The notes under the pieces were generated by a model. It did no database searches. It was given only the letters and a program-made list of their open reading frames with translations, and had not been told where the DNA came from. Below, one piece after another: positions 2,395 to 34,874 of a DNA stretch of 64,000 bases. Where the stretch lies: the NCBI GenBank assembly GCA_964474885.1, contig CAYYWO010000003.1, positions 57,337-121,336 on the forward strand. Reading direction: 5' to 3'. Origin of the DNA: Candidatus Hadarchaeota archaeon (GTDB lineage: Archaea > Hadarchaeota > Hadarchaeia > Hadarchaeales > JAWBSP01). How positions within the stretch are numbered: the stretch's first letter is position 1; every line of letters begins with the position of its first letter. Both the position numbers and the translations under genes were made by a program.

Positions 2395-4854
2395 ATGTCA
2401 AAACGGATCCGTACTCAGAGGGCCTCCTTCCTCCTTGTAGTCTTTGCAGTCCTGGTTTACATAGCACTCTGTGCTATTTTCAATCCAGGGGTCCCAGCCA
2501 CTTCATATCTTCTCCCCGCTTGTGTCTTGGTTCTGGCCACAATTATGTACCTCAATGTGAACAGAGTTTCCGAGTTTGTCAGAGAGCACCCCAAAGAGGT
2601 GGTCATCGCCATCTTAATCGTGACCGCGTGTTTAGCGACGGGTCTTCCCAAACTAACCTTCAATGTCGAGCTCAGGTCATATTTGCCACCCAGCTATGAA
2701 TCGGCTAGGACGACACTGGAGGTGGAAAACATGCTGGGAGGTGTGAGCAGTGAGGTGATCCTGCTTTACTCGGACAATCTCTTAGATCCAGCGTGCGTTG
2801 CGGCCGCCCATAACCTACGTGTCGCTCTGGAGAATGAGCTTGATGGTTATCTCGTTGCAAGACTGTTCTGGTACCTTGAGCCCATCGAGCGGGAACTTGG
2901 GGAGAACTTTCCGACAGGCCCTGAGCTGGAGAACAGACTCCGGCAGTTGCTTTCAGATCCAACCATTTTGGGGGAAGTGGAGCCCCACATAAGGCGAGTT
3001 GAACCCGAGCTCGCTGAAAACTTTCGGATAGTCAGGGGAAAGGAGGGCAAGCAAGTAGCCAGGCTCGTGTACAGGGTGGCCAAAATGCCTAGCTGGGAGG
3101 AAATCTCTTACGCTAAGAAGCTGGAGCGGATCGTGAAATCCTGTGTGGAAGACTCCGGCTATGTATTCGAGGCGACGGTGGGTGGTGACCACTCGACATC
3201 TAAAGACTTGATGAGGACGATCGAGGAGGAGCGGATTTATCTCTTCGGTACAGCAGGAATCCTGGTCTCACTATGTCTCTTCCTCACCTTCAGAAAACCT
3301 AGGGACATTCTCCTCGCACTGTTCACCATCGGTCTAGCCATCGCCTGGGTGGTTTGTCTGATGGGGTGGCTGGGGATAGAGTTCTCACCCGTGGTTGTGG
3401 GGGTCTTCCCACTCCTCATAGGCTTGGGGATAGATTATTCGGTCTACATGAACTACAGGTACTCTGAGGAAAGGTTGAAAGGGAGAGGCCCGGGTCTTGC
3501 CGCTGGCTTGGCAATAGCCACGGTGGGGACGGCCATTTATCTATCATGTATGACTACCATGTTTGGTTATGGATCTTGGTTGACTTCCCCTATGGAGCCC
3601 TTGTTTGACTTCGGCGCACTGAGCATGGCAGGCATAGGATTCGCTTACATGCTTTCCGTAACGTTCTTGCCCTCCTGCAGGATCCTCTTAGACCGGGGTG
3701 TTCGGAAGGGAGAACTGGTAGACAGGTTCTCCGCTAGGGCACTTGAGACGGGCCTCTCCAAACTGGCAGTGGTCGTCGAACGTCATGCCAAATGGTTCTT
3801 GGTTGGAGCGGTGATCGTTACTCTACTGGCGGCCTACAGTGCGATGCATACCAGAACGGCTCTCGAATGGGAGAAGATGACCCCTCAGGGTATGGAGAGC
3901 CTTGAAACCTCGGACTTGTATCTCAAGCTGTGGCCGGAATACAATCCCATGGGTGCCATTCTTGTTATGGTCAAGGGAGACATAGCTTCTCCGGAAACTC
4001 TACGATGCATGGATCAGATACAGACTTATGCTCCTCAAAGGTGCAGGTATGTAACGGATGCGTGGAGCATCGTGGACTTTGTCAAACAGAAGAACGGTGG
4101 GATACTCCCGAGCACTAGAGAAAGGGTAGTTGAGATATTGTCGGAGCTAAGTGAACCGACCTACGCTTCCCTGATATCTCCCACCTACGACCGGACGATC
4201 ATGTTTATTACGACATACACGACTACCGATCAGGAAGTACTTGCTGCCACAGAAAACGTGAGGTACTTGGTGGAGAAGTACGGGCAAGTAGAGAACACGA
4301 AGTTCCTAGTCGGAGGACTGCCAGCCATCGGTGCAGATCTCTTGTCAGAATTGGTCCCCTCACAGCTGAGGACGACTCTTATAGCCCTAATCGGGTGCTT
4401 CCTCATCTTGTGGGCGGTGTTCCGGAACCCAAAGGAGGCCGGGATTTGTATGGTACCCGTCGTGCTCACGGTGGTCTGGGGACTGGGTATGTTCTGGCCT
4501 CTGGATATTCCCATAAATATCGTCACGGTTCTGGTTTCTGCAATCCTGATTGGTATTGGTATAGATTACGCGATCCATGTGCGCCACAGGTACGTGGAAG
4601 AGCTGAGCAAGGGGAGGAGTATAAAGCACGCCATCAGGGAGACCATGGTCAGGATAGGGGGAGCAGTCTTCGGTGCCGCGACGACCTCTCTGTCCGCTAT
4701 GGGCACCCTGATGGCCTCTAGGATGCCCGCGATTGCTGTTTTCGGGAAAATGATCGCCTTGGAGTTTGTAGCTTGTCTATGCGCGGTTTTCTTCGTGCTT
4801 CCGGCTTTGTTGGTCTGGCTGACCAAGAGAGGGAGCATACGTGTAACCACTTGA
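2395..4854 (+). CDS. MMPL/RND-superfamily membrane transporter.
   Basis: The start is trimmed to M50 ('MSKRIRTQRASFLLVVFAVLVYIAL'). There are two hydrophobic TM bundles separated by large soluble loops, and a 'GIDYSVYMNYRY' motif typical of the MMPL/SSD family. Confidence 0.6.
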   Translation: MSKRIRTQRASFLLVVFAVLVYIALCAIFNPGVPATSYLLPACVLVLATIMYLNVNRVSEFVREHPKEVVIAILIVTACLATGLPKLTFNVELRSYLPPSYESARTTLEVENMLGGVSSEVILLYSDNLLDPACVAAAHNLRVALENELDGYLVARLFWYLEPIERELGENFPTGPELENRLRQLLSDPTILGEVEPHIRRVEPELAENFRIVRGKEGKQVARLVYRVAKMPSWEEISYAKKLERIVKSCVEDSGYVFEATVGGDHSTSKDLMRTIEEERIYLFGTAGILVSLCLFLTFRKPRDILLALFTIGLAIAWVVCLMGWLGIEFSPVVVGVFPLLIGLGIDYSVYMNYRYSEERLKGRGPGLAAGLAIATVGTAIYLSCMTTMFGYGSWLTSPMEPLFDFGALSMAGIGFAYMLSVTFLPSCRILLDRGVRKGELVDRFSARALETGLSKLAVVVERHAKWFLVGAVIVTLLAAYSAMHTRTALEWEKMTPQGMESLETSDLYLKLWPEYNPMGAILVMVKGDIASPETLRCMDQIQTYAPQRCRYVTDAWSIVDFVKQKNGGILPSTRERVVEILSELSEPTYASLISPTYDRTIMFITTYTTTDQEVLAATENVRYLVEKYGQVENTKFLVGGLPAIGADLLSELVPSQLRTTLIALIGCFLILWAVFRNPKEAGICMVPVVLTVVWGLGMFWPLDIPINIVTVLVSAILIGIGIDYAIHVRHRYVEELSKGRSIKHAIRETMVRIGGAVFGAATTSLSAMGTLMASRMPAIAVFGKMIALEFVACLCAVFFVLPALLVWLTKRGSIRVTT

Positions 4855-6387: not shown

Positions 6388-6907
6388 GCTGAAGCAGATC
6401 CTCTGCTCTATTTTGATTCTAGCCATTGCGGTCTCGGGCCTCAGCCTGCACCGCTTGACAGTCTTTTCCCTTCCTCTTGTGTTGGGCTTCTTCCTGCACG
6501 AGATGTCCCACAAGTGGATGGCCCGCAGGTACGGTTTCTTCTCGGTTTACTCATGGTGGCCTCCCGGCTTGCTATTTGCTTTGTTCTTGGGTCTGGCCTC
6601 TGGGGGAGAGGTGATTTTCGCAGCGCCCGGAGCAGTGGTCATCCTGAGCAGCTTCTTTTCCAAGGATCAAGCGGGGAAGATAGCCCTTGCAGGCCCCTTC
6701 ATGAACGTGTTGCTAGCAGCCATCTTTTACCCCCTTGGCTCCCTGCTGGGGGAGCTGGCTCTCCAGGGTTTCTACATAAACCTGTGGCTGGCCGTCTTCA
6801 ACCTCCTCCCCTTCCCCCCTCTGGACGGCTACAAGGTCTTTCACTGGAGCCCCTTGCTGTGGGCACTCGTCGAAATACCCCTCCTTTCACTACTCTTCCT
6901 CAGCTAG
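6368..6907 (+). CDS. Small M50-family (site-2 protease-like) membrane metalloprotease.
   Basis: The HExxH motif 'FLHEMSHKW' sits in a TM helix. A downstream 'NLLPFPPLDG' motif and a polytopic hydrophobic profile are also present. Confidence 0.5.
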   Translation: MRFLASELKQILCSILILAIAVSGLSLHRLTVFSLPLVLGFFLHEMSHKWMARRYGFFSVYSWWPPGLLFALFLGLASGGEVIFAAPGAVVILSSFFSKDQAGKIALAGPFMNVLLAAIFYPLGSLLGELALQGFYINLWLAVFNLLPFPPLDGYKVFHWSPLLWALVEIPLLSLLFLS

Positions 6908-8530
6908 CTTCCTGATTTGATCCAGAGTGTCGGCTTCTTCCGGTTTTTTATCCTCTCTTATGCTCTTTATCCTCGCGAAGCGGAGGGCCATCCCGCAGGG
7001 GTATTTGGGGCTCCTCTGGACCTGATTGAAGGATACCTCCACCACCACCTCAGGCCGAACCCAGACGGTCCTCCCCTGACTGGAGATCTCCAGTTGCTTC
7101 AGCCTCCGGGTCATGTGCTCCAGCTCCTGGTCGGTTAGCCCTTTGAACGTCTTCCCCACCACCTCGAACTTCCCGGTTTTCGGATCCAGGGCTGCCAGGT
7201 AGTAATCAGAGAGGAACTTGGCCCTCCTTCCATGTCCCCATTCAGCTCCCACCACCACGAGATCCAGCGTGAGGGTCTTCTTGACCTTTAGCCAGCACTT
7301 TTCCCTCCTCCCCGGCACGTAGGGGCTGGAGGGATGTTTGGCCATGACCCCCTCGTGACCAGCATCTAAGGCCTGCTTTAAGAAGTCCTCCGCATCTCCG
7401 AGATCCAGGCACAGACGGTTAACGATTACATGATCCCCTGCGACCTCCTCCAGTTTGGATCTCCTCTCGGAGTAAGGGAGCTCGAGCAGAGACTTTCCCT
7501 CTAAAAACAAGATATCGAAGAACCAGAGCCGGAGGGGTACCTCCTCCCTCAGCTTCCTGATCTCCCTCTCCCTCCTGAACCTGCGGAGCAGGAACTGAAA
7601 GGGCAATGGTTTTCCTTCCCTCAGCGCCACGACCTCTCCCTCCAGGATTCCCTCCTTAAGCTCCAGCTCCCTGCACTGCTCCACAACCTCCGGCATGCTT
7701 TGGGTGACATCCTTCGGCCCCCTGCTGAAGATCCTCACCTGGTCGAGTTTTTTATGGACTTGGACCCTGGCCCCGTCCAGCTTGAACTCTAGGTAGGTCC
7801 GTCCCTGGTGCTCATGCAAGACTTCTTTCAAGTCTTGGGCCTGGTGTGCCAGCATGGGCTGTATGGGTCTGAAGACCTTGAGGTGGAAGCTGGACAGGTC
7901 CCTGCCGCAAGCTAGGGCCTCAGAGACCTCAGCCAGGCTCGTCAAGCTCCACGCCAGGTGCAGCTGCTTTGGATCCACCGAGTAGGCCTTCGCCAGGGCG
8001 GGCAACAGTAGACCCTCACTGAACCCCATCCTCATTTCCCCGATCAGGAGCTTCGTGAGCAGCCTGGACTCCGCGGGGGAGCATCTGAGGAACAGACCCT
8101 CGATTATCTTCCGCTTCCTGCTGACGGAGGACTCACCAGATATTTCCGTGACTTTTTGGATGGAATCCCAAACCTCCAAAATGGCGAGGGGGCGGGTATC
8201 TAGAGACCTGAAGAGAATGCCCTTCTTATCTAGTAGCCTGTAAACGGCCTCCCCAAGGTCTCCAGTTTCTTGGAAGAGGCGGAAAAGCTCCTCCTCCCTC
8301 GCACCTGTCACTTCAAGTACGATGTGCTTGAGGGTGGACCATCCCACGCCGAGCTGCGGAACCTGCCCGGCTAGCATGCAGGCGGCAGGTTTCACCTCCT
8401 TAGGCTCCAAATTCTTGAAGAATTCGGCAACGAGGTTTATCATTTCCTTTCTGCTGTGCATTTTTTCCAAGTTTAAGCAGAGCTCGGCTAGCCTGCTAAA
8501 CTCCATCAAATTTCTGGCGGGAAAAATCAA
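6890..8530 (-). CDS. lig: ATP-dependent DNA ligase.
   Basis: Adenylation motif 'EFKLDGARVQV', 'EGVMAK', 'CWLKVK', and an OB-fold C-terminus. The length is about 540 aa. The start may be M9 instead. Confidence 0.8.
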   Translation of the reverse strand: MIFPARNLMEFSRLAELCLNLEKMHSRKEMINLVAEFFKNLEPKEVKPAACMLAGQVPQLGVGWSTLKHIVLEVTGAREEELFRLFQETGDLGEAVYRLLDKKGILFRSLDTRPLAILEVWDSIQKVTEISGESSVSRKRKIIEGLFLRCSPAESRLLTKLLIGEMRMGFSEGLLLPALAKAYSVDPKQLHLAWSLTSLAEVSEALACGRDLSSFHLKVFRPIQPMLAHQAQDLKEVLHEHQGRTYLEFKLDGARVQVHKKLDQVRIFSRGPKDVTQSMPEVVEQCRELELKEGILEGEVVALREGKPLPFQFLLRRFRREREIRKLREEVPLRLWFFDILFLEGKSLLELPYSERRSKLEEVAGDHVIVNRLCLDLGDAEDFLKQALDAGHEGVMAKHPSSPYVPGRREKCWLKVKKTLTLDLVVVGAEWGHGRRAKFLSDYYLAALDPKTGKFEVVGKTFKGLTDQELEHMTRRLKQLEISSQGRTVWVRPEVVVEVSFNQVQRSPKYPCGMALRFARIKSIREDKKPEEADTLDQIRKLAEEE

Positions 8531-8629
8531 TTACCAAGAGGCTTCAATCTCGGGGACTGTAGAGCCCTTACGATTGTGCGTGCGGATTCACTCAAGCTGA
8601 AACAGAAAAAGAAAAAAGCAACTGCTTAT

Positions 8630-8729
8630 TTGTTGCAAACACTTCACGCCAAAGTGTTTATAACCGGTAAACACTTTGGGGAACTTTTATTTGTTTATCA
8701 ACTTCCTGCAAGCTGTTTATAAACACTTG
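8630..8729. promoter_or_regulatory. AT-rich intergenic region with the palindrome AAACACTT-N7-AAGTGTTT plus GTTTATAAAC/TTTGTTGCAAACAC motifs. Candidate transcription factor operator.
   Basis: Direct reading gives 'ttgttgcaaacacttcacgccaaagtgtttataacc', 'ggtaaacactttgg' and 'ctgtttataaacacttg'. The same half-sites recur at 16850-16985. Confidence 0.4.
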
Positions 8730-8818
8730 TCTGCTGTCATGGTAGCTTGTTAGAGTTGCACAGTCAATCCTCAATTAACTAGGCCTGGGAGCCTCCTTTC
8801 AAGTGGACAAATCCAGAG

Positions 8819-10333
8819 CTAGCTCACTCTGATGCAATTCGCTGTGTGTGGAGGTATTATCAGCACATCCTTCCTCACCTTGACTTTGTTCCTCTCTATC
8901 CCAACGAGATCTGGATTCGATGGAGAGTTGGCCGCCCAGGGGCCCGCCGTACCCACGGTGAACGTCTCCCGCGCTTCCTCTTTCAGTCGAATCGTGACGC
9001 TCTCGCTGTAACTGCGGTTGACGATGAACACGGAGGTTCCTCTCCTATCTTCAACCGCAGCTGCATCGACCACGGGAGCCCGGAGCGACCGCGTCTCTAT
9101 CTCGGGCGAGTTAACGCGAACCTCCAAAACAGTATCCCGCAGGTTCTCCGCATACATCCTAAAAACGACGCCGGGAGGGGCCAGGTACGCCCCAGATTCG
9201 TGGGTCACGATCGAACCCAGAGCGTTGATCATTTGCGCGTAGTTGGCACAAAGCAGATTTTTTATCCGGAGCAGGGAGTTCAACATACAGGCCGTATAGA
9301 GGCCCTCCGCCACCGTGTAGTTGCACCTCCGGTGCGAGGGCAGATCGTATCTGACATTCCACTCATCCAGACAGAGGGGTACCTCCACCTCCTCCTGCAC
9401 TCTGAGGAGCATGCGCTCGGTCTTTATGTTCCCTGTCACCACCCAGTAGAAGTTCTCCTCCGTGGGTTTGGGCCTCCAGTGCCAGAGCCTCATGACATCC
9501 GGAAAGTAATCGTGGATCGAGAGTGCATCGATCTCATGCCCGGCGATCTTCAGAAGCCTCCGATTCCAGTCCTTCCAGTTCAGGGGATTAAAGAGGGGGC
9601 GCAAGGGTTCAAAAAGAGGACGGAGTAGCAAGCAGGGCAGGAGTTGCGCCCAGACACTTTCTCCCCATGGGATGCCAAGCCCGCAGGCTATGAGCTTTAT
9701 GTCCGGGTCGACCCTCCGCATGGCCCTCGCGAATTTCAGGAATTTCTCGCCATATTTCTCAGGGGAGCAGGATCCCTTCTCTAGGGGCATCCACTGTTCG
9801 TTCCCGATGCACCACAGCTTCACACCCCATGGCTCTCTCCTCCCCATGGAAGCCCTGACCCTGCCCCACCTAGTGCTGGGATCCCCATTGCAGAACTCCA
9901 CCCACTCAGCAGCTTCCTCAGGGGTACCGGTTCCAGCGTTCACCGTAAGCATCGGTTCGGCCCCAACAGCTTCACAGAACATGAGGAACTCTTGGGTTCC
10001 GAACTGATAGCTCTCCGGCTTGCCTATCCCGGATCCTGACCACCTCCAGTAGTAATTCGGCTTGACGGGCCTGGACTTCCTGGGACCAATCCCAAACTTC
10101 CAGTGGTAGTAATCGGCGGCACACCCACCCGGGAAGCGGATGACCTGCGGCCTGATGGACTTGACAAGTTCGAGCACGTCCTTCCTGATCCCGCCCAGCC
10201 ACAGGTTTGAGGGGGGCTGGCTTGGGTCCCAAATCCCGCCGTAGATGTTGTCCCCTAGGTTCTCCACGAAGTGTCCCAGTATCATGGGGGTTTTCCACAA
10301 CCTGCCTCCCAGCTGGATCTTAGCCTCGATCAT
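8819..10333 (-). CDS. GH51 alpha-L-arabinofuranosidase-like glycoside hydrolase.
   Basis: 'IRFPGGCAADYYHWKFGIGP', 'WCIGNEQW' and 'LCLDEWNVRY' mirror the conserved GH51 blocks (IRYPGG.., WCLGNE, acid/base and nucleophile Glu regions). The start is trimmed to M46 ('MIEAKIQ'); the track N-terminus is low-complexity and overlaps the LmbE gene. Confidence 0.7.
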   Translation of the reverse strand: MIEAKIQLGGRLWKTPMILGHFVENLGDNIYGGIWDPSQPPSNLWLGGIRKDVLELVKSIRPQVIRFPGGCAADYYHWKFGIGPRKSRPVKPNYYWRWSGSGIGKPESYQFGTQEFLMFCEAVGAEPMLTVNAGTGTPEEAAEWVEFCNGDPSTRWGRVRASMGRREPWGVKLWCIGNEQWMPLEKGSCSPEKYGEKFLKFARAMRRVDPDIKLIACGLGIPWGESVWAQLLPCLLLRPLFEPLRPLFNPLNWKDWNRRLLKIAGHEIDALSIHDYFPDVMRLWHWRPKPTEENFYWVVTGNIKTERMLLRVQEEVEVPLCLDEWNVRYDLPSHRRCNYTVAEGLYTACMLNSLLRIKNLLCANYAQMINALGSIVTHESGAYLAPPGVVFRMYAENLRDTVLEVRVNSPEIETRSLRAPVVDAAAVEDRRGTSVFIVNRSYSESVTIRLKEEARETFTVGTAGPWAANSPSNPDLVGIERNKVKVRKDVLIIPPHTANCIRVS

Positions 10334-12410: not shown

Positions 12411-12499
12411 TAATTAGCGGCCTGCCTCTGTCCCATCCATTGAGGGCGATGATGGAGGGTGTTACGGTGCAAAGTGCCACCAACACATCCATTACACCG

Positions 12500-12960
12500 T
12501 CCACATCGCCGCCTGTTAGGTGAGCCCCCCTTACCAAACTAAGTCCGTGACGCTCCAAGCCGGCAGCCCGGAAATTGAAGCCCCTGTCGCGCGCCGTGGT
12601 TAGCTCCGGGTCACAGCGGGGTGGTCCACCAAGGGCTTCCCGGAGGCCTGGCGGGCGCGCCTTGTGGGGCTCTAAAAATTAACCGACGGATCAAAAAAGG
12701 GCCCCGCTGTCCCCCAGCACACTAACCCCGGGGCTCATAGGTTGCCTTTCCGGCGTCCTCCGCCCGGTAACCCTCGTGGTGGGGCGAGCGGGGCCAACCC
12801 CGCCTGTCACGCGCCAGGGTTGACCCGAGTTCATAGCGAGGTGGTCCACCAATTTGCTCCCCGAGGACCCATTGGCGCGCCTTCACGGCGGGGTGGCTCC
12901 AGTGTCCCCGCGACGATGCACCGGTGATCCCTTGTCACACCAGCTCTCGCTTCCCGCGGG
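12500..12960. ncRNA. Candidate structured non-coding RNA of unknown identity (possibly an RNase P RNA, SRP RNA or 5S-like element). GC-rich, with two ~77 nt repeat units.
   Basis: A ~600 nt gap with no credible ORF and much higher GC than its surroundings. Unit A (12585-12661) and unit B (12818-12893) both run GYCRCGCGCC...GGUGGUCCACCAA...GGCGCGCC, with internal complementarity (GCGCGCC/GGCGCGC and CUCCGGG/CCCGGAG). 'CCCGGAAAUUGAAGCC' resembles the 5S loop C 'CCCGGAAGUUAAGCC'. Strand and ends are unknown. Confidence 0.25.
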
Positions 12961-13030
12961 ATATCCCCATCATCGCCAACTAACTTCTTTCTCTGTCCAA
13001 AAAATGTTATTTTTTCGCTCAAGAGTTGCT

Positions 13031-13458: not shown

Positions 13459-14502
13459 ATGAAAATTGCTATCGTCTGCCCTCCCTGGATTAGAGTACCC
13501 CCTGAGGAGTACGGGGGGATAGAGTACGTTGTTTGGTTGCTGGCCGACGGCCTGGTGGATCGGGGGCATGAGGTGACCCTTTTTTCCGTGGCAGGCTCCC
13601 AGACTAAGGGTAAGCTGCGCTGGGTTTTCGAGGGACCCAGACTGGATACTCTGAAGAAAGTCTCACCAATCTTCCTCACGGAGGCGCTGACTCATTCGAT
13701 AGCGGCTTATGACGAGATAAGAAGAGGGGACTTCGATCTCGTCAGCGACCACACGTGGAAGGAGGGCTTGGCTTCTGCCCGCTTCTTGGATATCCCCGTC
13801 GTCCACACCATACACGGGCCAATGGGGGAAGAAAACAAAAGGTTCTACAGCATGTTCAGGGGGGTACCGCATATACATTTCGTCACCATAAGCAACCATC
13901 AGCGGAAGTGCTTGCCGGATTTGAATTATGCAGGGACGGTTTACAACGGCATTCGTGTCAGAGACTTCCCCTTTTACGAGGAGAAAGAAGACTATCTCCT
14001 TTACTTGGGTAGGTTCAACCCGGAAAAGGCACCCCATTTGGCATGCGAGGCGGCAAAGAAGCTGGGGAAAAGGTTGATCTTGGCGGGGAAGGTGCGCGAG
14101 CCCGCTGAGCAGAAGTATTTCGAGGAGTTCGTCAGACCGCGTTTGGGCCCTGAGATGGTTTTCGAGGGGGAGGTTTCAGATGGAAGGAAGAAGGAGCTCC
14201 TGTCCAGAGCCTCTGCTCTCCTCGTCCCAATTCAGTGGGATGAGCCCTTTGGGATAGTCATGATAGAGGCCATGGCTTGCGGGACTCCCGTTGTGGCCTT
14301 TGCGCGGGGGGCAGCTCCGGAACTCGTGAGGGAGGGAGAAACGGGGTACCTGGCTAAGGATTTTAAAGAGTTTGTGGAGAAAATTGGAAAAGTTGATCAG
14401 ATTGAGCCAAAGAGTTGCAGGAAGTGGGTGGAGCGGCAGTTCAATGAGGATGTCATGGTTGCCAAGTACGAAGAAGTCTTCAAGAGAGTCTTGGGAAGAT
14501 AA
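13459..14502 (+). CDS. GT4-family glycosyltransferase.
   Basis: 'MKIAIVCPPW...GGIEYVVWLLADGLVDRGHEVTLF' is a GT-B N-terminus. The C-terminal 'EPFGIVMIEAMACGTPVVA' is the GT4 E-x7-E region. Confidence 0.7.
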   Translation: MKIAIVCPPWIRVPPEEYGGIEYVVWLLADGLVDRGHEVTLFSVAGSQTKGKLRWVFEGPRLDTLKKVSPIFLTEALTHSIAAYDEIRRGDFDLVSDHTWKEGLASARFLDIPVVHTIHGPMGEENKRFYSMFRGVPHIHFVTISNHQRKCLPDLNYAGTVYNGIRVRDFPFYEEKEDYLLYLGRFNPEKAPHLACEAAKKLGKRLILAGKVREPAEQKYFEEFVRPRLGPEMVFEGEVSDGRKKELLSRASALLVPIQWDEPFGIVMIEAMACGTPVVAFARGAAPELVREGETGYLAKDFKEFVEKIGKVDQIEPKSCRKWVERQFNEDVMVAKYEEVFKRVLGR

Positions 14503-16765
14503 CTGGCTCATAAGAGAGGTCGGCTGGGAAGAAGCCAAGCAAAGGTTCTATGAGGCGATTTTTGCCCTGAGCAACGGGTACCTGGGCCTCAGGGGGAGCT
14601 TGGAGGAGATACCCAGGGGCTCTTACCCGGGAACGTACATTGCCGGGGTCTACGATGACTATGGGCTTGAGGTTCCGGAGATCGTGAACCTGCCAAACCC
14701 TCTAATGGTTGAGATCGAGACGGATGCCGGAAGGCTGGGCGTGGGGAAGGGCGAGTTCTTCGATCACGACCGGATTCTCGACATGAGGAATGCTACGCTT
14801 TGGCGCTGGACGACCTTCCGGGATGAGAAAGGCCGCTCGTACCGATACGAGTCCTGCAGGTTCGTCAGCATGGTCGATCCGCACTTGGTCGTCCAACATT
14901 TCTCCATCAGGCCCCTCGATGGACCTTGTGAGATCGAGTTACGGACTGGAGTGGACGCGACCACGAAAAATGAGATGAGGCCCTTTGGGGGCCCGATCGC
15001 GCACTATGAGATAGCCAAAATATGGAAGAAGAGGCCGACCTTACTGGTCCGCACCAAAAGAACGGGACTTTGGATCGCCTATTCTTGGCTCTGCAGGTTC
15101 TCGGGCGGGAGGTTGCTAGAGCGGTGCACAGTCTTCAAGGACAAGAAGCTCCTGGAGTGTTTCAGGGTCAAGATCCCCAAAGACAAAGTCTGCTCGATTG
15201 ACAGATTTTCCTACATTGTTGCAGGCCCCTCCAGAAAGGTTGCCCGGATGGCGAGAAGGGGTGCCCAAACGTCCGCCTCGCGGGGCTTTCGGGAAATCCA
15301 CGATCTCCATTCCAGGAAGTGGAGGGAGAAGTGGGAGGTGGCTAACGTCGAGATAGAGGGAGACAAGCAGTGTGACTTGGCACTCAGGTTTTGCATCTAC
15401 CACCTCTGTTCGGCCCTAAGCGACAGGGACTTCGACGTGAGCATTCCTGCGAAGGCGCTGACAGGGGAGTGGTACGGCGGGCACGTTTTCTGGGATACGG
15501 AGATTTTCATGTTGCCCTTCTACGCGCTGACCTTCCCCCATCTGGCGAAGCACCTCCTGCTATACAGGTACCGCAGGCTGGATGAGGCGAGGAACAAGGC
15601 AAGACGGATGGGCTATGCGGGTGCCCTCTTTCCCTGGGAGTCGGCACAAACCGGCGAAGAGGTCACGCCCAGACGCTGGAGGGATTTTAACGGGAGGGTG
15701 GTAAAGGTCCTGACTGCGGACAGGGAGCAACACATAGCCTCGGATGTGATGTATGCTCTCCGGACGTACCTGCTGGCGACTGGAGACTGGAAGTTCATGA
15801 GGCAGGCGGGTGCGGAGATGCTGTTCGAGACGGCCAGATTCTGGGCCAGCCGGGTCAGGCGTAACCGCAAGACTGGGGAGTACGAGATAAGGGGCGTAAT
15901 AGGCCCAAATGAGTTCCAGGAGTGCGTGGACAACAACGCCTTCACGAACTACTCGGCTCGGTGGTGCCTGCGGTGGGCGGCGGAGATATACAGGGAGCTC
16001 TCACTGAAGTATCCCTCAGATCTGAGGAGGATAAGCAGGAAGATCCGTCTGGATCCCTCAGAGGTAGAGAACTGGGTCAACATAGCGGGCAAAATCAGAT
16101 TCCCGCAAAGGCCCGACGGTCTGATTGAGGAATTCGATGGATACTTCGGCTTGAAAGATGTCCAAGTGAAGTTTGACAGACAGGGGATGCCAACTTGGCC
16201 GGGGGAAGTCCCCCTGCCCGAGGTCCGGCACACGAGGTTGGTAAAGCAGGCGGATGTGGTCTTGTTGCTTGCGCTCTTCAGGGATGAGTTCGATAAGGCA
16301 ACCAAGGCGAAGAACTTGGATTTCTACGAGCGCAGATGCGTGCACAAGTCCTCCCTGAGTCCGGCGGCACACGGCCTCGTGGCGGCCGATATAGGTGACG
16401 CAAACCGTGCCTTAAGATATTTCAAGTTCGCCTCTTGTCTCGACCTTTTTGACCTGCACCAGAACACTGGAAAGGGTATACATGGGGCGGTAATGGGTTC
16501 GGCTTGGCAGCTAGCCATTTTTGGCTTCGGTGGTGTGCGCCTGGGGGAGAAATTGAGCGTGAATCCGCTGCTTCCCCCGGGATGGCATTCCATTCGATTC
16601 AAGCTCAGGTGGAGGGGGAACCTACTAGAGGTTCACGCTACGAGTCGGGAAGTGAGGGTCAAGGGTGTGAAGACGCGGGGCCCCGTGAGCCTTGAGGTTC
16701 TTGGGAAACGAGTAACAGTTACCGAAAACTCCATTGTATCTTCGCGGTATGTAGAGGAACAGTAA
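14444..16765 (+). CDS. GH65 glycoside hydrolase/phosphorylase (maltose-, trehalose- or kojibiose-phosphorylase-like).
   Basis: An N-terminal beta-sandwich ('FALSNGYLGLRG'), an (alpha/alpha)6 catalytic domain and a C-terminal domain; about 770 aa. No ATG follows the GT4 stop (14502). The start is assigned to ATG 14444 or 14450 inside the GT4 3' end. The track ORF starts at 14372. Confidence 0.7.
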   Translation: MRMSWLPSTKKSSRESWEDNWLIREVGWEEAKQRFYEAIFALSNGYLGLRGSLEEIPRGSYPGTYIAGVYDDYGLEVPEIVNLPNPLMVEIETDAGRLGVGKGEFFDHDRILDMRNATLWRWTTFRDEKGRSYRYESCRFVSMVDPHLVVQHFSIRPLDGPCEIELRTGVDATTKNEMRPFGGPIAHYEIAKIWKKRPTLLVRTKRTGLWIAYSWLCRFSGGRLLERCTVFKDKKLLECFRVKIPKDKVCSIDRFSYIVAGPSRKVARMARRGAQTSASRGFREIHDLHSRKWREKWEVANVEIEGDKQCDLALRFCIYHLCSALSDRDFDVSIPAKALTGEWYGGHVFWDTEIFMLPFYALTFPHLAKHLLLYRYRRLDEARNKARRMGYAGALFPWESAQTGEEVTPRRWRDFNGRVVKVLTADREQHIASDVMYALRTYLLATGDWKFMRQAGAEMLFETARFWASRVRRNRKTGEYEIRGVIGPNEFQECVDNNAFTNYSARWCLRWAAEIYRELSLKYPSDLRRISRKIRLDPSEVENWVNIAGKIRFPQRPDGLIEEFDGYFGLKDVQVKFDRQGMPTWPGEVPLPEVRHTRLVKQADVVLLLALFRDEFDKATKAKNLDFYERRCVHKSSLSPAAHGLVAADIGDANRALRYFKFASCLDLFDLHQNTGKGIHGAVMGSAWQLAIFGFGGVRLGEKLSVNPLLPPGWHSIRFKLRWRGNLLEVHATSREVRVKGVKTRGPVSLEVLGKRVTVTENSIVSSRYVEEQ

Positions 16766-16849
16766 GCGGACAGTTATTTCCCGACGACTTGTCAGGAATT
16801 GACACCGATTTCAAGGCGAGCCTGAAGACAAGGGTGATGTAAACTTAAC

Positions 16850-16985
16850 AAATAAACAGTTTATGCGAAGTGTATAACAAAATAAACAGTTGGCTCAAAG
16901 TGTTTATAACAATAAAACACTTGCGAGGCGTGTTTGCAACAAAATAAACAGTTGACATGAACTGTGATAATAGATAACAGTTGTT
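16850..16985. promoter_or_regulatory. AT-rich region upstream of the beta-PGM gene with three copies of AAATAAACAGTT, the palindrome AAGTGTTT-N9-AAACACTT, GTGTTTGCAACAAA and the palindrome AACAGTTGTT. Candidate operator cluster.
   Basis: Read directly from the sequence. It shares the AAACACTT/AAGTGTTT half-sites and the TTTGTTGCAAACAC element (reverse complement) with 8630-8729. Confidence 0.4.
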
Positions 16986-17056
16986 ACCAAGTTTCACCCT
17001 CACTTTACGGTGACAGGAGAGATGTTACAGCCTAATGAGGCGGTGACAAAGTTTGA

Positions 17057-17827
17057 ATGAGAGTCGAGGACAGAGTCGCGTTCATCTGGGACATCGATGG
17101 TGTGGTCGTGGATAGTCCCCATGAGCACGCTTGGAGGCAGACGGCACTAAGATGGGGGGCGAAAGAGCTGACTCCGGAGTTCTACTTCCAGCACGTTGCG
17201 AGCAAACCTAGGTATGTCGGGGGTCACGCGATACTGGAGCTCCTAGGCATATACGAAAAGCACGGTGCAACAGATGAACCCTCCCGCAAAGAACTCTTAG
17301 CCCGCTTCTGCGAGGAAAAGAACCGGATGATTCAGCAGCTGATCAGAGAGGGGAAGTTTGAGGTTTTCAAGGATGCCGTCGGATTGCTCCTTCAAGCGAG
17401 GAAACGTGGAGTAAAGCAAGCTGCAGCCTCAGCTTCGAAAAACGCGAGGCCCATGCTGGAGAGAGTAGACGATGAGAGGTTGAGGCAGTTGGGTTTCGGG
17501 GATCTCATCGGGGACATTAAACGCCTGTATCAGGCATTCGAGGTCGATGTCTGCGGCCTAGATATCGAGGAAAAGGCAGGGATTCAGCGTTTCGCGGCGG
17601 AGCGGTTGAAGGAGAAGTTCCCCTCCCTCGCACACTTTGTGGTCTTTGAGGATGCACCGGCGGGGGTGGGAGCTGCACATCAACTCGGATTTTTTGCAGT
17701 CGGTGTTAGGCGCATAGGGAGTCGGGAGGAGCTGGTCCGAGCGGGAGCGGATGTGGTAGTGGACTCCCTGACGGAACTGACCTTAGATCAGCTGTTACGG
17801 CAGGTATCCAAGAAGTTCAGCCTTTAG
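17057..17827 (+). CDS. HAD-superfamily beta-phosphoglucomutase-like hydrolase.
   Basis: '[20 protein letters not shown]' is HAD motif I (DxDG). It sits next to the GH65 phosphorylase, the classic GH65 plus beta-PGM pairing. Confidence 0.6.
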
Positions 17828-20702
17828 CAACACCTATCGGTACCATCCTGGCGACCCTCTTGGCTATGCCTGCTCTGTCCGAGATCTCCGCAACTTTGTC
17901 CACATCCTTGTAGGCTTCGGGGGCTTCCTCAGCGATGACGGACACCTGAGCAGCCCTTATGTATATCCCCTTGGAGGCCAATCTTCTCCTCACCTCGTCC
18001 CCCCTGTACTGCCTTAGGGCTGCGTGGCGGCTTAAGTGCCTTCCAGCTCCGTGGGCGGTTGATCCGAAGGTTTCCTCCATAGCCCTCTGGGTACCCACCA
18101 GGATGTAGGAGGCAGTCCCCATGTCACCGGGGATGAGAACAGGCTGCCCCACCTCCCGATACAAGGCAGGGATGTCGGGATGCCCGGGACCGAAGGCGCG
18201 TGTTGCTCCCTTGCGGTGGACCACAACCTCTTTCACTTCCCCATCGATCCTGTGCCTTTCCAGCTTGGCGATGTTGTGTGCAACGTCGTAGACGATGTGG
18301 AGCCCCAACGATTCCGCATCCCTTCTGAAGACCTGCTCGAACGATTGTCTCACCCAGTGCACGATCATCTGGCGGTTTGCCCAAGCGTAGTTCGCCGCGC
18401 ACTTCATGGCTGAGAAGTAGTCCTGGCCTTCGGGGGATCGGAATGGAACGTTCACGAGCTCACGATCCAGCAGGCGGATGCCGTACCGCCTGACTGCGTG
18501 CTCCATCCGGCGGAGGTAGTCGGAGCAAACCTGGTGCCCCAGACCGCGGGAGCCCGTGTGGATCATAACCGTGACCTGCCCCTCGTGCGTTATCCCGAAA
18601 GCCTTGGCTACCCGAGGCTCGTAAATTTTATCCACCACTTGGACCTCTAGGAAGTGATTTCCGCTTCCCAAGCTACCAAGCTGGGGGAGCCCACGGTTCT
18701 TCGCCCCCGTACTCACCTTCGACGCCGAAGCTCCCTCCATACATCCCCCCTCTTCCAGCCGCTCGAGGTCCTCCTGCCAGCCGTATCCGTTCTCCACGGC
18801 CCACCTGGCACCGTGCTCGAGCACCTCATCCAGCTGGGGCATGGAAAGGCGTACTTTGCCGCGGCTCCCTAGGCCTGAGGGGACGTTCCGGAAGAGGGTG
18901 TCAACCAGCTCGCGGAGCTTGGGCTCGACATCTTTTTTGTCCAAATTCGTCTTAACTAGGCGCACCCCGCAATTCGAAGTAACGAATCCCTCCGCAACAA
19001 AGTTGTGGTGGGAGTCGGCAACCGTGAAGTCGTACACCCAACCGTCATGGGGTATGCTTTCTATCTGCACCACCTTGTCGAAGACCACTTCTCCGTCCAC
19101 GTGCTCCTTCATGAACCGTTCGAAGGTCGGGAAGTTTTGCGGAACTCGGGCATCACCAGTACCCTCGTAGAGACTGCGTTCAATGAGCCGCCGGTTGACC
19201 ACACCACGGTAGCGCCGCAGGAGCTCTGCGGATCGCCCGTGGCCCTCTTGGATCTCGCATCTGAGGAGCTCTCTCTCACGTTTCACGGCCTCTTTGAATT
19301 TCAGGAAAACGACGGCGGCCAAGGCACGTGCTTTCCTCTCCCGGTTGTACTCGTAACCGATCTTGCTCCACAGTGCTATCAGGTTCTCCGGCCGCTCGTG
19401 AACGCTCAGTCGATAAACGATCCTTCCATTGTCCCTCTCCGCCACTCCGACGGTCGAGGAGACCCCGAATTCGTTCAGGATCCGCTTCAACTCGTTGAGG
19501 AAACGCCGTCCATCCACCTCCTTTCCCTGCTTTCTTGATACTTTCACTTCAGGCATGTAGAAGTTGTAGCCGTTCATCGTCTTGGGGGCGGACATTTCAG
19601 CACCGAAGTAGGCTGCGAGGAAGAGGCGCTTCAACCACAGGGGCAGCCTGGAGATCCAGTGCGGGACTTCCAGCCTGACCTGGGTCTTCTTCCCCCTGGG
19701 ATAGCCCAGAGCCAGCAGGAGCTCAGCCAGGCTGCGAGCGGAGACCTTAAGGGAAGCCTCTGTTCGAACAAACTCACGCCCCTTGAGCCTGTGTCTCCTC
19801 CTGCGCGTGTAGATGGAAGACTTGTATCCTAAACGCTTCAGATCCGCTTGGATGTCCTGCAGGTCCTCCAGCTTGCCGTAGAATATCACGCTTTTCCCGC
19901 AGATGGTCCCGTCACCTAGCAGGTACCCGAGCAACTTCAAGAGGAGGGGCAGCTTGGGATTCCGGGCTGTTAGGGGTAACAGGCCGCGCTTTTTGAGTTC
20001 TTCTCTGATGGCTGACCTGAACGCGGTCTCACGGACTATCTCGAAGTCAGTTGCCTCCTCATACGGAACTCCCTCGAATGGGTGCAACCCTACTTCCGTT
20101 CCCACGGTGAGTCCTCCCGCTTCCCTCATTCCCTCGCGGGTCAAAATCGGGTGGTCGGGGGAAAGTGCCAGCTCGAATCCCGATGCTGTCTTTATTTTCA
20201 TGACAGATTTGTCATTCCTGCGGAGTGTCAGGATTACGGGGGTCGGTTTCGCTCGATTCTGGTTGAGAACCACCACCTCTTGTCCCACCGAGACCCTCTC
20301 TATGGGCAGCCAGAAGCCAAGCGGGGTCAGCACCCGCGTGCCAGCCGGCAGGCAGTTTATATCGTAGCCCACGCCGCCTGGCGAGATGACCCCGGTTTCA
20401 GCATCAGTTGCTGCGACTCCTCCTATCGGGAAGCCGTAGCCCTGATGCCCGTCGGGGAGGACGATAGAATACTTGTAGATGCCGTCGAGGGAGGCGACAT
20501 TCGCCCCCTGCTCCAGCGTTAGATCCTTGCCCATCTCCTGCAACATTTCCCGGTCCGCGTAGATCCTCGCCGGCACGCGCATCCCCGGCTTGTAATCTGG
20601 TGGGATTTCCCACCGCACCTCGTCGATCTGCCTGATCTTCCCCGGCAGCGGCATCATACTATTCGAGGGAGGAGGTATGACTAAAAAGCTAGATGTCCAC
20701 AA
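17817..20702 (-). CDS. rtcB: RNA-splicing ligase RtcB interrupted by a ~461 aa intein.
   Basis: Extein blocks 'GGVGYDIN' | intein | 'CGVRLVKTN...' reconstitute the conserved RtcB 'GYDINCGVRL' metal-binding motif. The C-terminal extein carries the RtcB His-rich motifs ('NHFLEVQ', '[10 protein letters not shown]', 'HNIAK'). The true start is probably M16 or M17. Confidence 0.85.
18972..20354 (-). mobile_element. Intein with a LAGLIDADG homing-endonuclease domain inside rtcB.
   Basis: It begins with Cys ('[11 protein letters not shown]') and ends '...[12 protein letters not shown]' followed by Cys+1. An internal '[13 protein letters not shown]' is the LAGLIDADG motif. Coordinates come from counting residues (N-extein 116 aa, C-extein 384 aa). 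Confidence 0.75.
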
Positions 20703-21114
20703 CCGCCTGCACGCAGCAGGCCCCGGGCTTTTCCTCTACCCGCATCATGTGATAGGTCATGGCCTTCACCGAAGTCTTGGCGGGATGTTTTTCCGGGTTG
20801 AAGGCCTCACCCCAAGCTTTCCCTTCTAGGCAGAGCCCCGACGCGCTCCGCTCGATCTTCACCTCGAACTTGGAGAAGAGCAAATTCTGACTGTCGTGAT
20901 AAGAGATCAGTGAGTCCAGCCAGTCGTAAAGAAGGGCCTCCTTATCCTCCGCCTGCAACTCCAGCTTGACCATCTCTTTCGGTTCTACTTTGCTGGTGTC
21001 CGTCATTATCTCGAAAAGCGCGAGTGCGGCGTTTTCGAAAGCCTCCGCCAAGGTTTTCCCGTAGGCTCTAAAGCCGACATCGGAAGGGTGCTCCACCCAC
21101 TCGAAACGCTTCAT
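20689..21114 (-). CDS. Archease (RtcB activator).
   Basis: '[34 protein letters not shown]' is the archease N-terminal signature. The gene is immediately upstream of rtcB and overlaps it (operon). Confidence 0.8.
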
Positions 21115-29968: not shown

Positions 29969-31196
29969 GCATCCCGAGCTGGCTGCTTTGGGCCGGTCAA
30001 GGATAGAATGGGCTACCCAGCACATGCCCGTTTTGGCCAGGATAGCCAAGGAGTTGGAGGAGAGAAAGCCCTTGAAAGGCCTGCGTGTGGGGTTAGCGCT
30101 CCACGTAGAGGCAAAGACTGCAGTTCTCGTGAGAACTCTGAGCCGAGCTGGAGCAAAAATCACCATTGCGGGTTGCAACCCCTTGTCTACTAAGGATGAG
30201 TGTGCTGCGGCCCTGGCGGAGGAGGGGCACGAGGTCTTCGCGTGGAGGGGTGAGACGGAAGAGGAGTATTGGGAGAACTTGCGTTCTGTCCTTGAAACGC
30301 GTCCCCAGCTTATCATCGATGATGGCGGGGACCTGACCTCCTTAGCCCACAGGATGGGTGTGAGTGGGATCTTTGGTGCTTGCGAGGAGACTACCACGGG
30401 AGTGAACCGGGCAAAGCAAATGGAGAGGGAGGGCATCCTGAGGTTCCCCATAATAGCGGTTAACGACACGCCGTCAAAACGTCTGTTCGACAACAGATTC
30501 GGAACGGCCGAGTCCACCCTCCAGGCAGTGTTAACGATAACAAATCTGCAGCTATCTGGGAAAAGGGTGGTGGTAGCGGGGTACGGGCATGTTGGGAGGG
30601 GGATAGCCTCTAGGATGAAGGCAATGGGTGCAGTTGTTTACGTGGTTGAGGTGGATCCGATCAGAGCCCTGGAGGCAGCCATGGACGGTTTCATCGTCAC
30701 GGACATGCAGGAAGCCTCTCGCGTGGGGGACATCTTCATTACGTGTACAGGGAGCGTCAACGTGATAAGGAAGGAGCACTTCTCCCAGATGAAGGATGGG
30801 GTCTTGCTGGTGAATGCCGGGCATTTTGATGTCGAGATAGACCTCAGGTCCCTCAGAGACATGGCAAAGGAGCACAGGAAGGGCATCCAGGATGTTGAGG
30901 AGTTCGTGCTGCCGGATGGTAGGAGACTCTACGTCCTGTGTCAGGGGAGGCTGGTAAACCTAGCCGGGGAACACTCAATGGGGCACCCATGTGAGATAAT
31001 GGACATGAGTTTTTCGCTCCAAGCCCTCTCGCTCTGCTATCTAGTGGAGCACAGGGATGAAATGAAACCAAAGGTCTACCCAGTACCGGAGGAAATCGAC
31101 AAGAAAGTAGCCACATTAAAACTCCTCTCCTTGGGAGCAAAGCTGGAGGCTCAAACAGAGGAGCAGATCAGGTACAGATCAAGTTGGTTGCTCTGA
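29955..31196 (+). CDS. ahcY: Adenosylhomocysteinase.
   Basis: 'RIEWATQHMPVL', the NAD-binding 'VVVAGYGHVGRG' and the C-terminal 'HLPKKLDEKVA-like' region. The start is trimmed to ATG 29955 (M19 of the track ORF). Confidence 0.85.
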   Translation: MTRIKHPELAALGRSRIEWATQHMPVLARIAKELEERKPLKGLRVGLALHVEAKTAVLVRTLSRAGAKITIAGCNPLSTKDECAAALAEEGHEVFAWRGETEEEYWENLRSVLETRPQLIIDDGGDLTSLAHRMGVSGIFGACEETTTGVNRAKQMEREGILRFPIIAVNDTPSKRLFDNRFGTAESTLQAVLTITNLQLSGKRVVVAGYGHVGRGIASRMKAMGAVVYVVEVDPIRALEAAMDGFIVTDMQEASRVGDIFITCTGSVNVIRKEHFSQMKDGVLLVNAGHFDVEIDLRSLRDMAKEHRKGIQDVEEFVLPDGRRLYVLCQGRLVNLAGEHSMGHPCEIMDMSFSLQALSLCYLVEHRDEMKPKVYPVPEEIDKKVATLKLLSLGAKLEAQTEEQIRYRSSWLL

Positions 31197-34157: not shown

Positions 34158-34874
34158 TTGGATTGGAGGATGATATACGCGATAATATCCGGGAAAGGGG
34201 GGGTGGGGAAAACAACCTTGGCCGCGAACCTAGGCCCACTAGCTGCGGAGCTTGGTAAAAAGACGCTTTTGGTTGATACAGATTTAGCCGCTGGAAATCT
34301 TGCTCTTTATCTGGGCTTAACCGAACCGAGTAAGACCCTCCACGACTTGTTGGCAGGGGAGAAAGATATACATTCCTGCATATATTCCCTCCGTGAAGGT
34401 CTCGATGTCCTGCCAGCTGGCCTTTCCCTAAAGGGATTTTTGAAAGCAGACATAGCCGGGCTCCCGCAACTCATGAAGAAAGTAACCAAAGGTTATGAAG
34501 TCGTAATTTTAGACACGCCCCCTGGTATAAGCAGGAATAGCATAGTCCCGTTGAAGTGCGCAGATCTAGCAGTTCTCGTCACCACGGCGGATCCACCCTC
34601 CCTAACCGTTAGCGTAAAGATGAAGGCCATAGCTTCCATTCTCGATAGGAGGATTGCTGGAACGGTCATAAACCGAGTAGAGAAAGGATTTTTAAAGAAG
34701 AACAAGCCAGCGGTCATTGCCAAGCAGCTGGGAACGGAAATCGTGGGCACTATCCCCGAGGACGATAAAGTAAAACAGTCAATTGAGCTCGGGAAGCCCA
34801 TTGTTCTCCACCGACCCAAATCGCAGGCTTCTAAAGCTCTTAGAGCGATCGCGTTAAGTCTTTTTGGCGGATAA
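34158..34874 (+). CDS. MinD/ParA-family P-loop ATPase (TadZ/CpaE-like).
   Basis: The deviant Walker A 'ISGKGGVGKTTLAANLG', 'VLVDTDLAAGNLALYLG' and 'VVILDTPPG'. Confidence 0.7.
   Translation: MDWRMIYAIISGKGGVGKTTLAANLGPLAAELGKKTLLVDTDLAAGNLALYLGLTEPSKTLHDLLAGEKDIHSCIYSLREGLDVLPAGLSLKGFLKADIAGLPQLMKKVTKGYEVVILDTPPGISRNSIVPLKCADLAVLVTTADPPSLTVSVKMKAIASILDRRIAGTVINRVEKGFLKKNKPAVIAKQLGTEIVGTIPEDDKVKQSIELGKPIVLHRPKSQASKALRAIALSLFGG

Follow-up and report, generated by a model that had tools for sequence, protein, structure and literature searches.

Phased arrays of a 25-bp near-palindrome in two intergenic regions of a Candidatus Hadarchaeota genome

The stretch of Candidatus Hadarchaeota archaeon DNA analyzed here (64,000 nucleotides of contig CAYYWO010000003.1; hereafter, the window) contains two AT-rich intergenic regions, site 1 and site 2, each of which carries a tandem array of four to six units of one near-palindromic sequence with a period of 30 to 32 bp. 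These phased rows of a palindrome are a real and apparently undescribed element. With a probability that we put at about 0.55, the units of a site are operator-like sequences set in phase, all of which would be recognized by a single dimeric, sequence-specific DNA-binding protein. A literature search on the motif strings returned nothing relevant, and no description of the element was found in the literature searched; by its sequence it appears to resemble phased operator- or iteron-like arrays.

The repeated unit is a near-palindrome of ~25 bp, AAGTGTTTATAAC-AGATAAACAGTT, the second half of which can also be written A[A/G]ATAAACA[C/G]TT. An asymmetric 5-bp center, AACAG, separates its two arms of 10 bp each, AASTGTTTAT and ATAAACASTT. 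Conservation spans the full 25 bp, the outer AAGTG and CA[C/G]TT being invariant, as are A11, A12, and C13 of the center, and the inner TTTAT-N5-ATAAA resembles an Lrp box. Because the center is asymmetric, each unit is directional. The units of an array share one direction, with a single exception at 8652 to 8676, which is better fitted when inverted. In the window arrays, most units are 23 to 26 bp long and are separated by GC-rich spacers of 5 to 7 nucleotides. The top match in the window to a profile of the unit is unit C of site 1 (nhmmer E = 0.004).

The first-pass annotation of this DNA had described an 8-bp half-site with variable spacing, arranged as AAACACTT-N7-AAGTGTTT in site 1 and as AAGTGTTT-N9-AAACACTT in site 2. 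All of the strings that it listed exist in the window, and the two arrangements were located at positions 8637 to 8659 and 16898 to 16922, respectively; a further copy of the second arrangement, at 8652 to 8676, had been overlooked. The N9 arrangement is the conserved unit itself, while the N7 arrangement is the junction of neighboring units across a variable spacer, which is why the half-site spacing looks variable. Instead of variable spacing, there is a fixed 25-bp unit at a phase of ~31 bp. The reverse-complement pair of GTGTTTGCAACAAA was recovered at 8629 to 8642 (minus strand) and 16930 to 16943 (plus strand). Likewise, three copies of AAATAAACAGTT are present in site 2, and a copy with one mismatch also occurs in site 1 (8620 to 8631, minus strand). 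The string AACAGTTGTT, which had been called a palindrome, is present, but its arms are merely 4 bp long.

The enrichment of these motifs was gauged by comparing their counts with those in dinucleotide-preserving shuffles. There are 9 occurrences of AAGTGTTT in the window against 1.7 expected, and 9 of the 14 occurrences of AAACA[CG]TT in the 64 kb fall within the two sites. No shuffle ever matched the motif counts, with the exception of GTGTTTGCAACAAA searched with two mismatches, for which two matches were obtained in 4 of 100 shuffles; both real copies are exact. The motifs are non-random, far beyond chance. The initial description of them as shared and dyad symmetric is borne out, and sites for a dimeric DNA-binding protein appear to be the best reading of them. 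The two sites are the longest two AT-rich intergenic gaps in the window (40 to 42% GC versus ~52% overall). Only short open reading frames (ORFs) are found in them, in every frame, and none makes a convincing coding sequence. When site 1 (minus strand) is compared with site 2 (plus strand), the two align in the same order over ~115 to 150 nucleotides, with conserved arms and diverged spacers, and the flanks also show some similarity. On this alignment, the two sites are paralogous copies of one module. The window DNA is also present in the Logan assembly of SRR7051179.

Homologous arrays occur in a second organism. Sequence collections were scanned with a pattern of three consecutive half-sites. 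The scan of GTDB genomes gave 45 scattered single matches, mostly in bacterial genomes, and these were judged to be at or near chance (rough expectation of ~8 under uniform composition and higher in AT-rich genomes), except for two Iainarchaeum loci discussed below. The scan of JGI metagenomes gave six matches, three of which are in Ga0190319; the other three (L055, L056, and L058) were rejected as unrelated AT-rich sequences. The three Ga0190319 contigs (L053, L054, and L057) have a GC content of 58 to 59% and otherwise show no similarity to the window, and they therefore belong to a different organism. They hold four arrays, one of three units on L053, two of four units each on L054, and one of two units on L057, in which the unit is near-invariant (AAGTGTTTATAACAGATAAACAGTT) and the period is exactly 31 bp. 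The known set thus comprises six arrays in two organisms, neither of whose genomes was scanned in full.

Among 12 Ga0190319 units, pairwise identity is 0.89 within the units and 0.34 within the 6-nucleotide spacers (Fisher P = 7e-15), and the GC content is 0.27 in units versus 0.72 in spacers. This means that purifying selection acts on the 25-bp unit and on the length of the spacer, not on the spacer sequence, which would be free to drift toward the base composition of the genome. As the spacers appear to have drifted in this manner while the units were kept, neither recent slippage nor recent transposition would account for the arrays. In most arrays of both organisms, the unit variants also follow one order, from TTGATAAC (unit A) through TTTATAAC (unit B) to a terminal TTTG[C/T]AAC (unit C). 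The exceptions to this order are L053, which has no recognizable unit A, and L057, which has no unit B.

A selfish or decaying dispersed repeat without host function, similar to a miniature inverted-repeat transposable element or a minisatellite, could explain why the alignment of the two sites keeps the same order and includes the flanks, as whole arrays would then have been duplicated. The differing unit numbers (two to six per array) and the degeneration of the window copies, with indels and one inverted unit, also agree with such an origin. However, randomized spacers of fixed length between units that are 89% identical point to selection rather than to recent spread. Furthermore, the 67.6 kb of this genome that were examined contain just the two arrays, with none in the 3.6-kb rightward extension of the window (L062); searches of viral contigs, plasmids, and phages gave no match to the arrays; and spacers of different copies bear no relation to one another. 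Reading of the flanks revealed neither terminal inverted repeats nor target-site duplications, for which no systematic search was made. Overall, we regard a selfish repeat as very unlikely. A clustered regularly interspaced short palindromic repeat (CRISPR) array was also considered and rejected, as the spacers are merely 5 to 7 nucleotides long. CRISPR spacers measure ~26 to 72 nucleotides and are similar in length to, or longer than, the repeats.

As palindromes also fold as RNA, the arrays could be a structured noncoding RNA or a 3' untranslated region element made of tandem hairpins. Indeed, the folding z-scores are -2.0, -2.0, and -4.7, and unit B of site 1 lies at the heart of an inverted repeat with perfect 12-bp arms and a 7-nucleotide loop (8649 to 8679; CCAAAGTGTTTA...TAAACACTTTGG). 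Site 1 also has a GCAAC...GTTGC stem followed by a T-rich run (8598 to 8619, minus strand), and this run could serve as an oligo-T terminator for read-through from the GH51 gene. Despite these features, there is no sign of selection on an RNA hairpin. Pairing (87.7%) equals that of shuffled controls, no covariation was seen among the 13 distinct units, and positions 3 and 23 form a G·G pair in 7 of these 13, including the dominant unit. In addition, the predicted folds differ among arrays, and the dyad symmetry is equal on both strands. A search of the sites against Rfam gave no match at E ≤ 5 except one noise match (E = 5), and a scan of the sites for sigma-70 promoters and intrinsic terminators remained at background level. 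An RNA element is highly improbable on these grounds.

For an array of operator-like sites, as favored here, one dimer would occupy each 25-bp unit. The 31-bp phase corresponds to approximately three helical turns and would bring each dimer onto the same side of the helix as the one before it, which is what makes cooperative binding of three to five dimers possible. Neighboring dimers could then contact each other, and by bending or wrapping ~90 to 150 bp of DNA they could build a higher-order complex. An array ends, with its last unit, toward the next gene, which is co-directional, and the complex might modulate transcription that runs into this gene or initiates in its direction. The gene affected would be that for the DNA ligase at site 1 and the HAD-family beta-phosphoglucomutase (beta-PGM)-like gene at site 2. 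A directional action on the downstream gene is suggested because the unit variants are ordered and the downstream gene is co-directional.

[quoted passage not shown] The present arrays resemble such Lrp/AsnC (feast/famine regulatory protein) arrays, for example, the three boxes of Ss-LrpB in Sulfolobus solfataricus, in being clusters of imperfect palindromes with AT-rich centers and a box-like inner 15 bp (TTTAT-N5-ATAAA). The center spacing of about three helical turns on one face is also shared (31 bp in Ga0190319 and 30 to 32 bp in the window), and three to four sites take up ~90 to 120 bp, which is as much DNA as three or four dimers wrap (PMC2995911). In contrast, the conserved unit measures 25 bp here and the Lrp box measures 13 to 15 bp, the units here are far more uniform, and their variants stand in a fixed order. 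Moreover, the arrays are scattered beside unrelated genes and have no Lrp/AsnC gene next to them, whereas in that family the cognate gene is often a neighbor and autoregulated. The array would work most like an Lrp-type phased operator array, a likeness that falls short of established family membership. Positioning by archaeal histones, which occupy ~30 bp per dimer, was set aside with the argument that invariant positions imply base-specific recognition.

The genes around the six arrays bear on the proposed direction of action. The downstream gene is co-directional with the array in three Pfam-supported cases (ligase, HAD, and CCA-adding enzyme). The initial placement of site 1 upstream of the DNA ligase gene holds, as the last unit of the array (unit C) ends 113 nucleotides from the ligase ATG. 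At site 2, the distance from the end of unit C to the ATG of the HAD/beta-PGM-like gene (position 17057) is 103 nucleotides. The L053 array lies past a galactokinase-like gene and ahead of the CCA-adding enzyme gene, and the L057 array lies beside the start of an Na+/H+ antiporter gene. The two four-unit arrays of L054 (the 5,641-bp contig Ga0190319_1000768) point inward and enclose ~5 kb that encodes small uncharacterized ORFs, a GATase_4 protein, and a 445-amino-acid protein with AlbA_2, HATPase_c_4, and winged-helix domains (2448 to 3785). The left array is situated ahead of all of these and the right-hand array between two genes without assigned identity, and both are probably co-directional with what follows. 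In one case, the GATase_4 gene is the first Pfam-supported gene past unsupported ORFs, which had no Pfam matches; in the other, the ORF has no Pfam match, and the 47-amino-acid N terminus of the gene beside the right-hand array gave no identification. The 445-amino-acid protein, which is not an Lrp, is a candidate for either the binding protein or a regulated gene.

On their other side, three arrays start between 15 nucleotides before and 90 nucleotides after the stop codon of a co-directional gene (GH51, GH65, and galactokinase-like); in the window, the GH51 stop codon is 90 nucleotides ahead of the first unit of site 1, and the GH65 stop codon is 71 nucleotides ahead of the first unit of site 2. 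A fourth array, the left one of L054, may also lie just past a co-directional gene if an unverified upstream ORF is real. With six arrays, both the sugar genes on the 3' side and the match in direction between array and downstream gene are suggestive, short of statistical certainty.

The first-pass annotation had proposed that a sugar-responsive, TrmB-like dimer coregulates the carbohydrate genes between the two sites. Several observations agree with this. The window arrays are flanked by GH51, GH65, and beta-PGM-like genes, a sugar-1-phosphate nucleotidyltransferase gene and the galactokinase-like gene end at the L053 array, and the inner GTTTAT-N5-ATAAAC is a dyad with the 6-N5-6 geometry of the Thermococcales glycolytic motif (TGM) that TrmB/TrmBL1 operators carry near glycoside hydrolase and phosphorylase genes. 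However, the proposed carbohydrate block is not coherent, as it includes the RNase HII, thioredoxin, and PHP phosphoesterase genes and is encoded on both strands, and the arrays face away from it, toward the DNA ligase and HAD/beta-PGM-like genes. The GH51 and GH65 genes do adjoin the arrays as described, but site 2 is located between the GH65 and beta-PGM-like genes and not outside both. It is also the stop codons of the sugar genes, not their promoters, that abut the arrays, and the four homologous arrays elsewhere adjoin genes for the CCA-adding enzyme, the Na+/H+ antiporter, GATase_4, and uncharacterized ORFs, so that array neighbors are not consistently sugar genes. The operator sequence itself differs. 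Allowing up to two mismatches, TATCAC-N5-GTGATA matched the window only at 593 and 21929, which is chance level, and at neither site, and no TrmB-domain gene was detected among the Pfam-scanned window ORFs. The TGM is, furthermore, a single site near the transcription factor B recognition element (BRE) and TATA box, not a phased array. Control by a TrmB-like sugar regulator is therefore quite unlikely. A weak link to sugar metabolism remains in that GH51, GH65, and galactokinase-like genes end just upstream of arrays and a beta-PGM-like gene follows one, six arrays being too few to test the association.

Other observations weigh against operator-like arrays more generally. The arrays are 74 to 280 nucleotides from the next start codon. 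Window promoters have a TATA-like box ~27 to 33 nucleotides before the ATG, and the genes look leaderless, judging from this spacing; the arrays would therefore lie upstream of the presumed core promoters rather than overlapping them, whereas most archaeal operators overlap. The genes adjoining the six arrays share no obvious function, and the near-identity of units across loci exceeds that of most regulons. No regulator gene adjoins the sites or was found among the Pfam-scanned window ORFs. The Pfam scan, which covered the large ORFs of the window but left out the ribosomal-protein operon (~24 to 31 kb) and ORFs below ~90 amino acids, detected no TrmB, Lrp/AsnC, or other transcription factor, no Orc1/Cdc6, and no partition operon. 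Upstream of the ligase and antiporter genes, the nearest relatives detected (55 to 59% identical) also show no conservation of the motif. Finally, protein binding and regulatory output, like the barrier function considered below, are predictions from sequence.

Relatives of the window genes are distant. The closest relatives of the ligase are 55 to 59% identical and none exceeds 59%; the nearest named ones belong to Hadarchaeales (~51%) and Bathyarchaeia (~48%), and no relative emerged when GTDB genomes were searched with the ligase protein as the guide. For two proteins, the nearest named relatives are Hadarchaeales at 51 to 55% identity, and relatives of the beta-PGM-like protein are taxonomically scattered and at most 58% identical. 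No motif was found upstream of the ligase at the loci of its 55 to 59% identical relatives. Because these relatives are so distant and lack the motif, phylogenetic footprinting is impossible. The intergenic gap ahead of the ligase gene contains a tRNA-like gene in the relatives closest to the window ligase (L002, 9870 to 9945; L005, 9885 to 9958; read by eye from the sequence). With a tRNA-like gene in place of the array, the array would be a lineage-specific acquisition at the ligase position. Likewise, no array is present at the Hadarchaeales locus orthologous to that of the antiporter.

Another palindrome, CTGTCTGTTACYATGGTAACAGACA, which is unrelated to the first, is present in two copies on the stretch from the L053 array to the CCA-adding enzyme gene (3240 to 3268 and 3308 to 3335). 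Its core, GTTACTATGGTAAC, is located just upstream of the ligase gene in the 56% identical relatives (L002/L003, 9944 to 9970; L004, ~34) and also on L054 (~4090). From this distribution, the palindrome would seem to be an operator for a different regulator, one conserved across the lineage.

The arrays might also be barrier or architectural elements, either closing off the 3' end of a transcription unit in the manner of a polar roadblock or insulator or serving as a centromere-like or chromosome-organizing site comparable to sopC. The location of three, and possibly four, arrays near co-directional stop codons would fit such a role, as would the variable distance from array to next start codon and the near-identity of units across loci, as is found in high-affinity structural sites. 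The arrays are also directional, the site 1 array has a T-run behind it, and both organisms have inverted array pairs 5 to 8 kb apart. However, the geometry of these pairs is opposite, outward in the window and inward in L054, and no partition or SMC-type gene is adjacent; the lone ParA/MinD-like gene (34158 to 34874) is found beside type IV pilus genes. The sopC locus of the F plasmid consists of tandem repeats with an inverted repeat within each. Such plasmid centromere and iteron arrays share with the present arrays the dyad-containing tandem direct repeats, the constant period, and the high unit identity. In contrast, the arrays described here are chromosomal, present in multiple copies, short (two to six units), and not adjacent to a partition operon or rep gene. 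We consider a barrier or architectural function unlikely. In a more specific form, which is a shade less probable still, the arrays would constitute a lineage-specific class of polar barrier or architectural site, in which a dedicated protein on an ordered 31-bp array of three to five units past a transcription unit would block transcription or replication forks in one direction or provide insulation. By analogy, this would resemble the terminator and fork-barrier arrays of eukaryotic rDNA and the Ter sites of bacteria. To our knowledge, no archaeal counterpart of either has been described.

Alternatively, the 31-bp repeat could be a core-promoter-like module, in which TTTATAA serves as a TATA box, transcription starts ~25 nucleotides further on, in the next unit, and the TATA-less last unit opens the transcript. 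With TTTATAA at unit positions 6 to 12, the start would fall near position 3 of the following unit, and a TATA-to-start distance of ~25 nucleotides fits archaeal promoters. The terminal unit never has a TATA-like sequence, and the arrays are co-directional with the downstream gene, as expected for promoters. On the other hand, other promoters in the window have AT-rich, TATA-like boxes but not the invariant AAGTG, AAC, and CAGTT, and the sequence ahead of the TATA-like box is unlike the BRE consensus. The near-palindromic symmetry is left unexplained, and leaders of 100 to 280 nucleotides would be needed where genes look leaderless. A promoter module is as improbable, in our estimation, as control by a TrmB-like protein.

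Repeated dyads in AT-rich DNA beside a replication gene (ligase) are reminiscent of the origin recognition boxes (ORBs) of a replication origin, and the ACA[C/G]TTG core resembles the mini-ORB of Methanothermobacter. Nonetheless, an origin is barely conceivable here. The core motifs of ORBs are TTCC and GAA, as in TTCCAGTGGAA (PMC1904270), and no unit contains this TTCC/GAA core. Archaeal origins have an adjacent orc1/cdc6 (or whiP) gene and inverted boxes that flank an AT-rich unwinding element (PMC4010727). No orc1/cdc6 gene was found among the Pfam-scanned window ORFs, and the units are direct repeats rather than inverted boxes. The arrays are also too dense for origins, with two only 8 kb apart and two within a single 5.6-kb contig.

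Two Candidatus Iainarchaeum genomes contain tandem palindromes of the form AAGTGTTTCC-N4/5-GGAAACA[C/G]TT (L027, 3281 to 3336; L040, 3600 to 3660). These are in orthologous positions upstream of genes for AAA_14 plus DUF4143 ATPases, and in L027, the other neighbor is a replication factor A gene. Their outer 8-bp arms (AAGTGTTT and AAACA[C/G]TT) are identical to those of the window arrays, with an arm separation of 8 to 9 bp and a period of 32 bp. They differ in their inner arms (TTTCC/GGAAA), in having two units only, and in their hosts, which are very distant DPANN archaea. The Iainarchaeum palindromes are possibly related to the window arrays, although the search pattern required these outer arms and thus partly forced the likeness.

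Almost nothing is known about gene control and chromosome organization in uncultured archaeal lineages such as this one. A short, sharply defined, selected, phased, and directional element with at least six copies in two organisms provides bait for capturing the binding protein, and the arrays offer a clean natural system in which to study how proteins assemble cooperatively along one face of DNA. If the binding protein is Lrp-like or another known regulator, the arrays would add one more regulon. Should they prove to be polar barriers or architectural sites, they would represent a new kind of archaeal chromosome element.

The units and the adjoining genes of the window are listed in Table 1. 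Positions 16989 to 17010 hold a possible further vestigial unit of site 2.

TABLE 1 Repeat units and adjoining genes at the two sites of the window
Feature	Coordinates	Strand	Remarks
DNA ligase gene, ATP-dependent	6890-8506	-	538 amino acids, ATG at 8506; target of the direction of the site 1 array
T-rich run	8598-8619	-	GCTTTTTTCTTTTTCTGTTTCA; directly past the array, T6/T5
Site 1 unit C	8620-8644	-	AAGTGTTTGCAACAAATAAGCAGTT; 'TTTGCAAC' variant; terminal, closest to the ligase gene
Site 1 spacer	8645-8651	.	7 nucleotides, GC-rich, variable, CACGCCA on the plus strand; the N7 of AAACACTT-N7-AAGTGTTT
Site 1 unit B	8652-8676	+	AAGTGTTTATAACCGGTAAACACTT; inverted relative to its neighbors by center fit
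Site 1 unit A	8682-8704	-	AAGTTGATAAACAAATAAAAGTT; degenerate 23-nucleotide copy, 'TTGATAA' variant
Site 1 distal unit	8710-8728	-	AAGTGTTTATAAACAGCTT; cut to 19 nucleotides
GH51-type alpha-L-arabinofuranosidase gene	8819-10333	-	Co-directional with the site 1 array
Genes between the sites			GH51 (-), PIG-L/LmbE (-), PHP (-), RNase HII (+), thioredoxin (+), GT4 (+), GH65 (+)
GH65 glycoside phosphorylase gene	14444-16765	+	Co-directional with the site 2 array
Site 2 unit 0	16837-16861	+	ATGTAAACTTAACAAATAAACAGTT; left arm degenerate
Site 2 unit A	16868-16891	+	AAGTGTATAACAAAATAAACAGTT; 24 nucleotides
Site 2 unit B	16898-16922	+	AAGTGTTTATAACAATAAAACACTT
Site 2 unit C	16928-16953	+	GCGTGTTTGCAACAAAATAAACAGTT; 26 nucleotides, 'TTTGCAAC' variant
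Site 2 extra unit	16960-16982	+	AACTGTGATAATAGATAACAGTT; degenerate, 23 nucleotides
HAD-family beta-PGM-like hydrolase gene	17057-17827	+	Target of the direction of the site 2 array

Several further features of the window were recorded. The RNase HII and thioredoxin genes are separated by a gene-free gap of 620 nucleotides (12411 to 13030) with a GC content of 63%. It contains two homologous segments of ~90 nucleotides (~12575 to 12665 and ~12795 to 12890) that have GGTGGTCCACCAA and GCGCGCC in common, and positions 12775 to 13016 (minus strand) gave a weak Rfam match to the HgcG/Pab40 H/ACA small RNA (21 bits, E = 1e-3), which is below the gathering threshold. The gap is probably a multi-hairpin H/ACA guide RNA gene.

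The gene for the tRNA-splicing ligase RtcB (17817 to 20702, minus strand) carries an intein insertion that includes a LAGLIDADG homing-endonuclease domain, and a gene for archease, the partner of RtcB, is immediately upstream (20689 to 21114, minus strand). A step in GC content occurs at ~31000, from 0.55 to 0.60 (5 to 31 kb, including the ribosomal-protein operon) to 0.46 to 0.50 (31 to 43 kb). The latter region holds a type IV pilus cluster (pilin, PilB-like ATPase, and T2SSF) and a gene for a eukaryotic-type DNA topoisomerase IB (31179 to 32720, minus strand; Topoisom_I_N, Topoisom_I, and Topo_C_assoc domains), an enzyme that is found in only some lineages of archaea.

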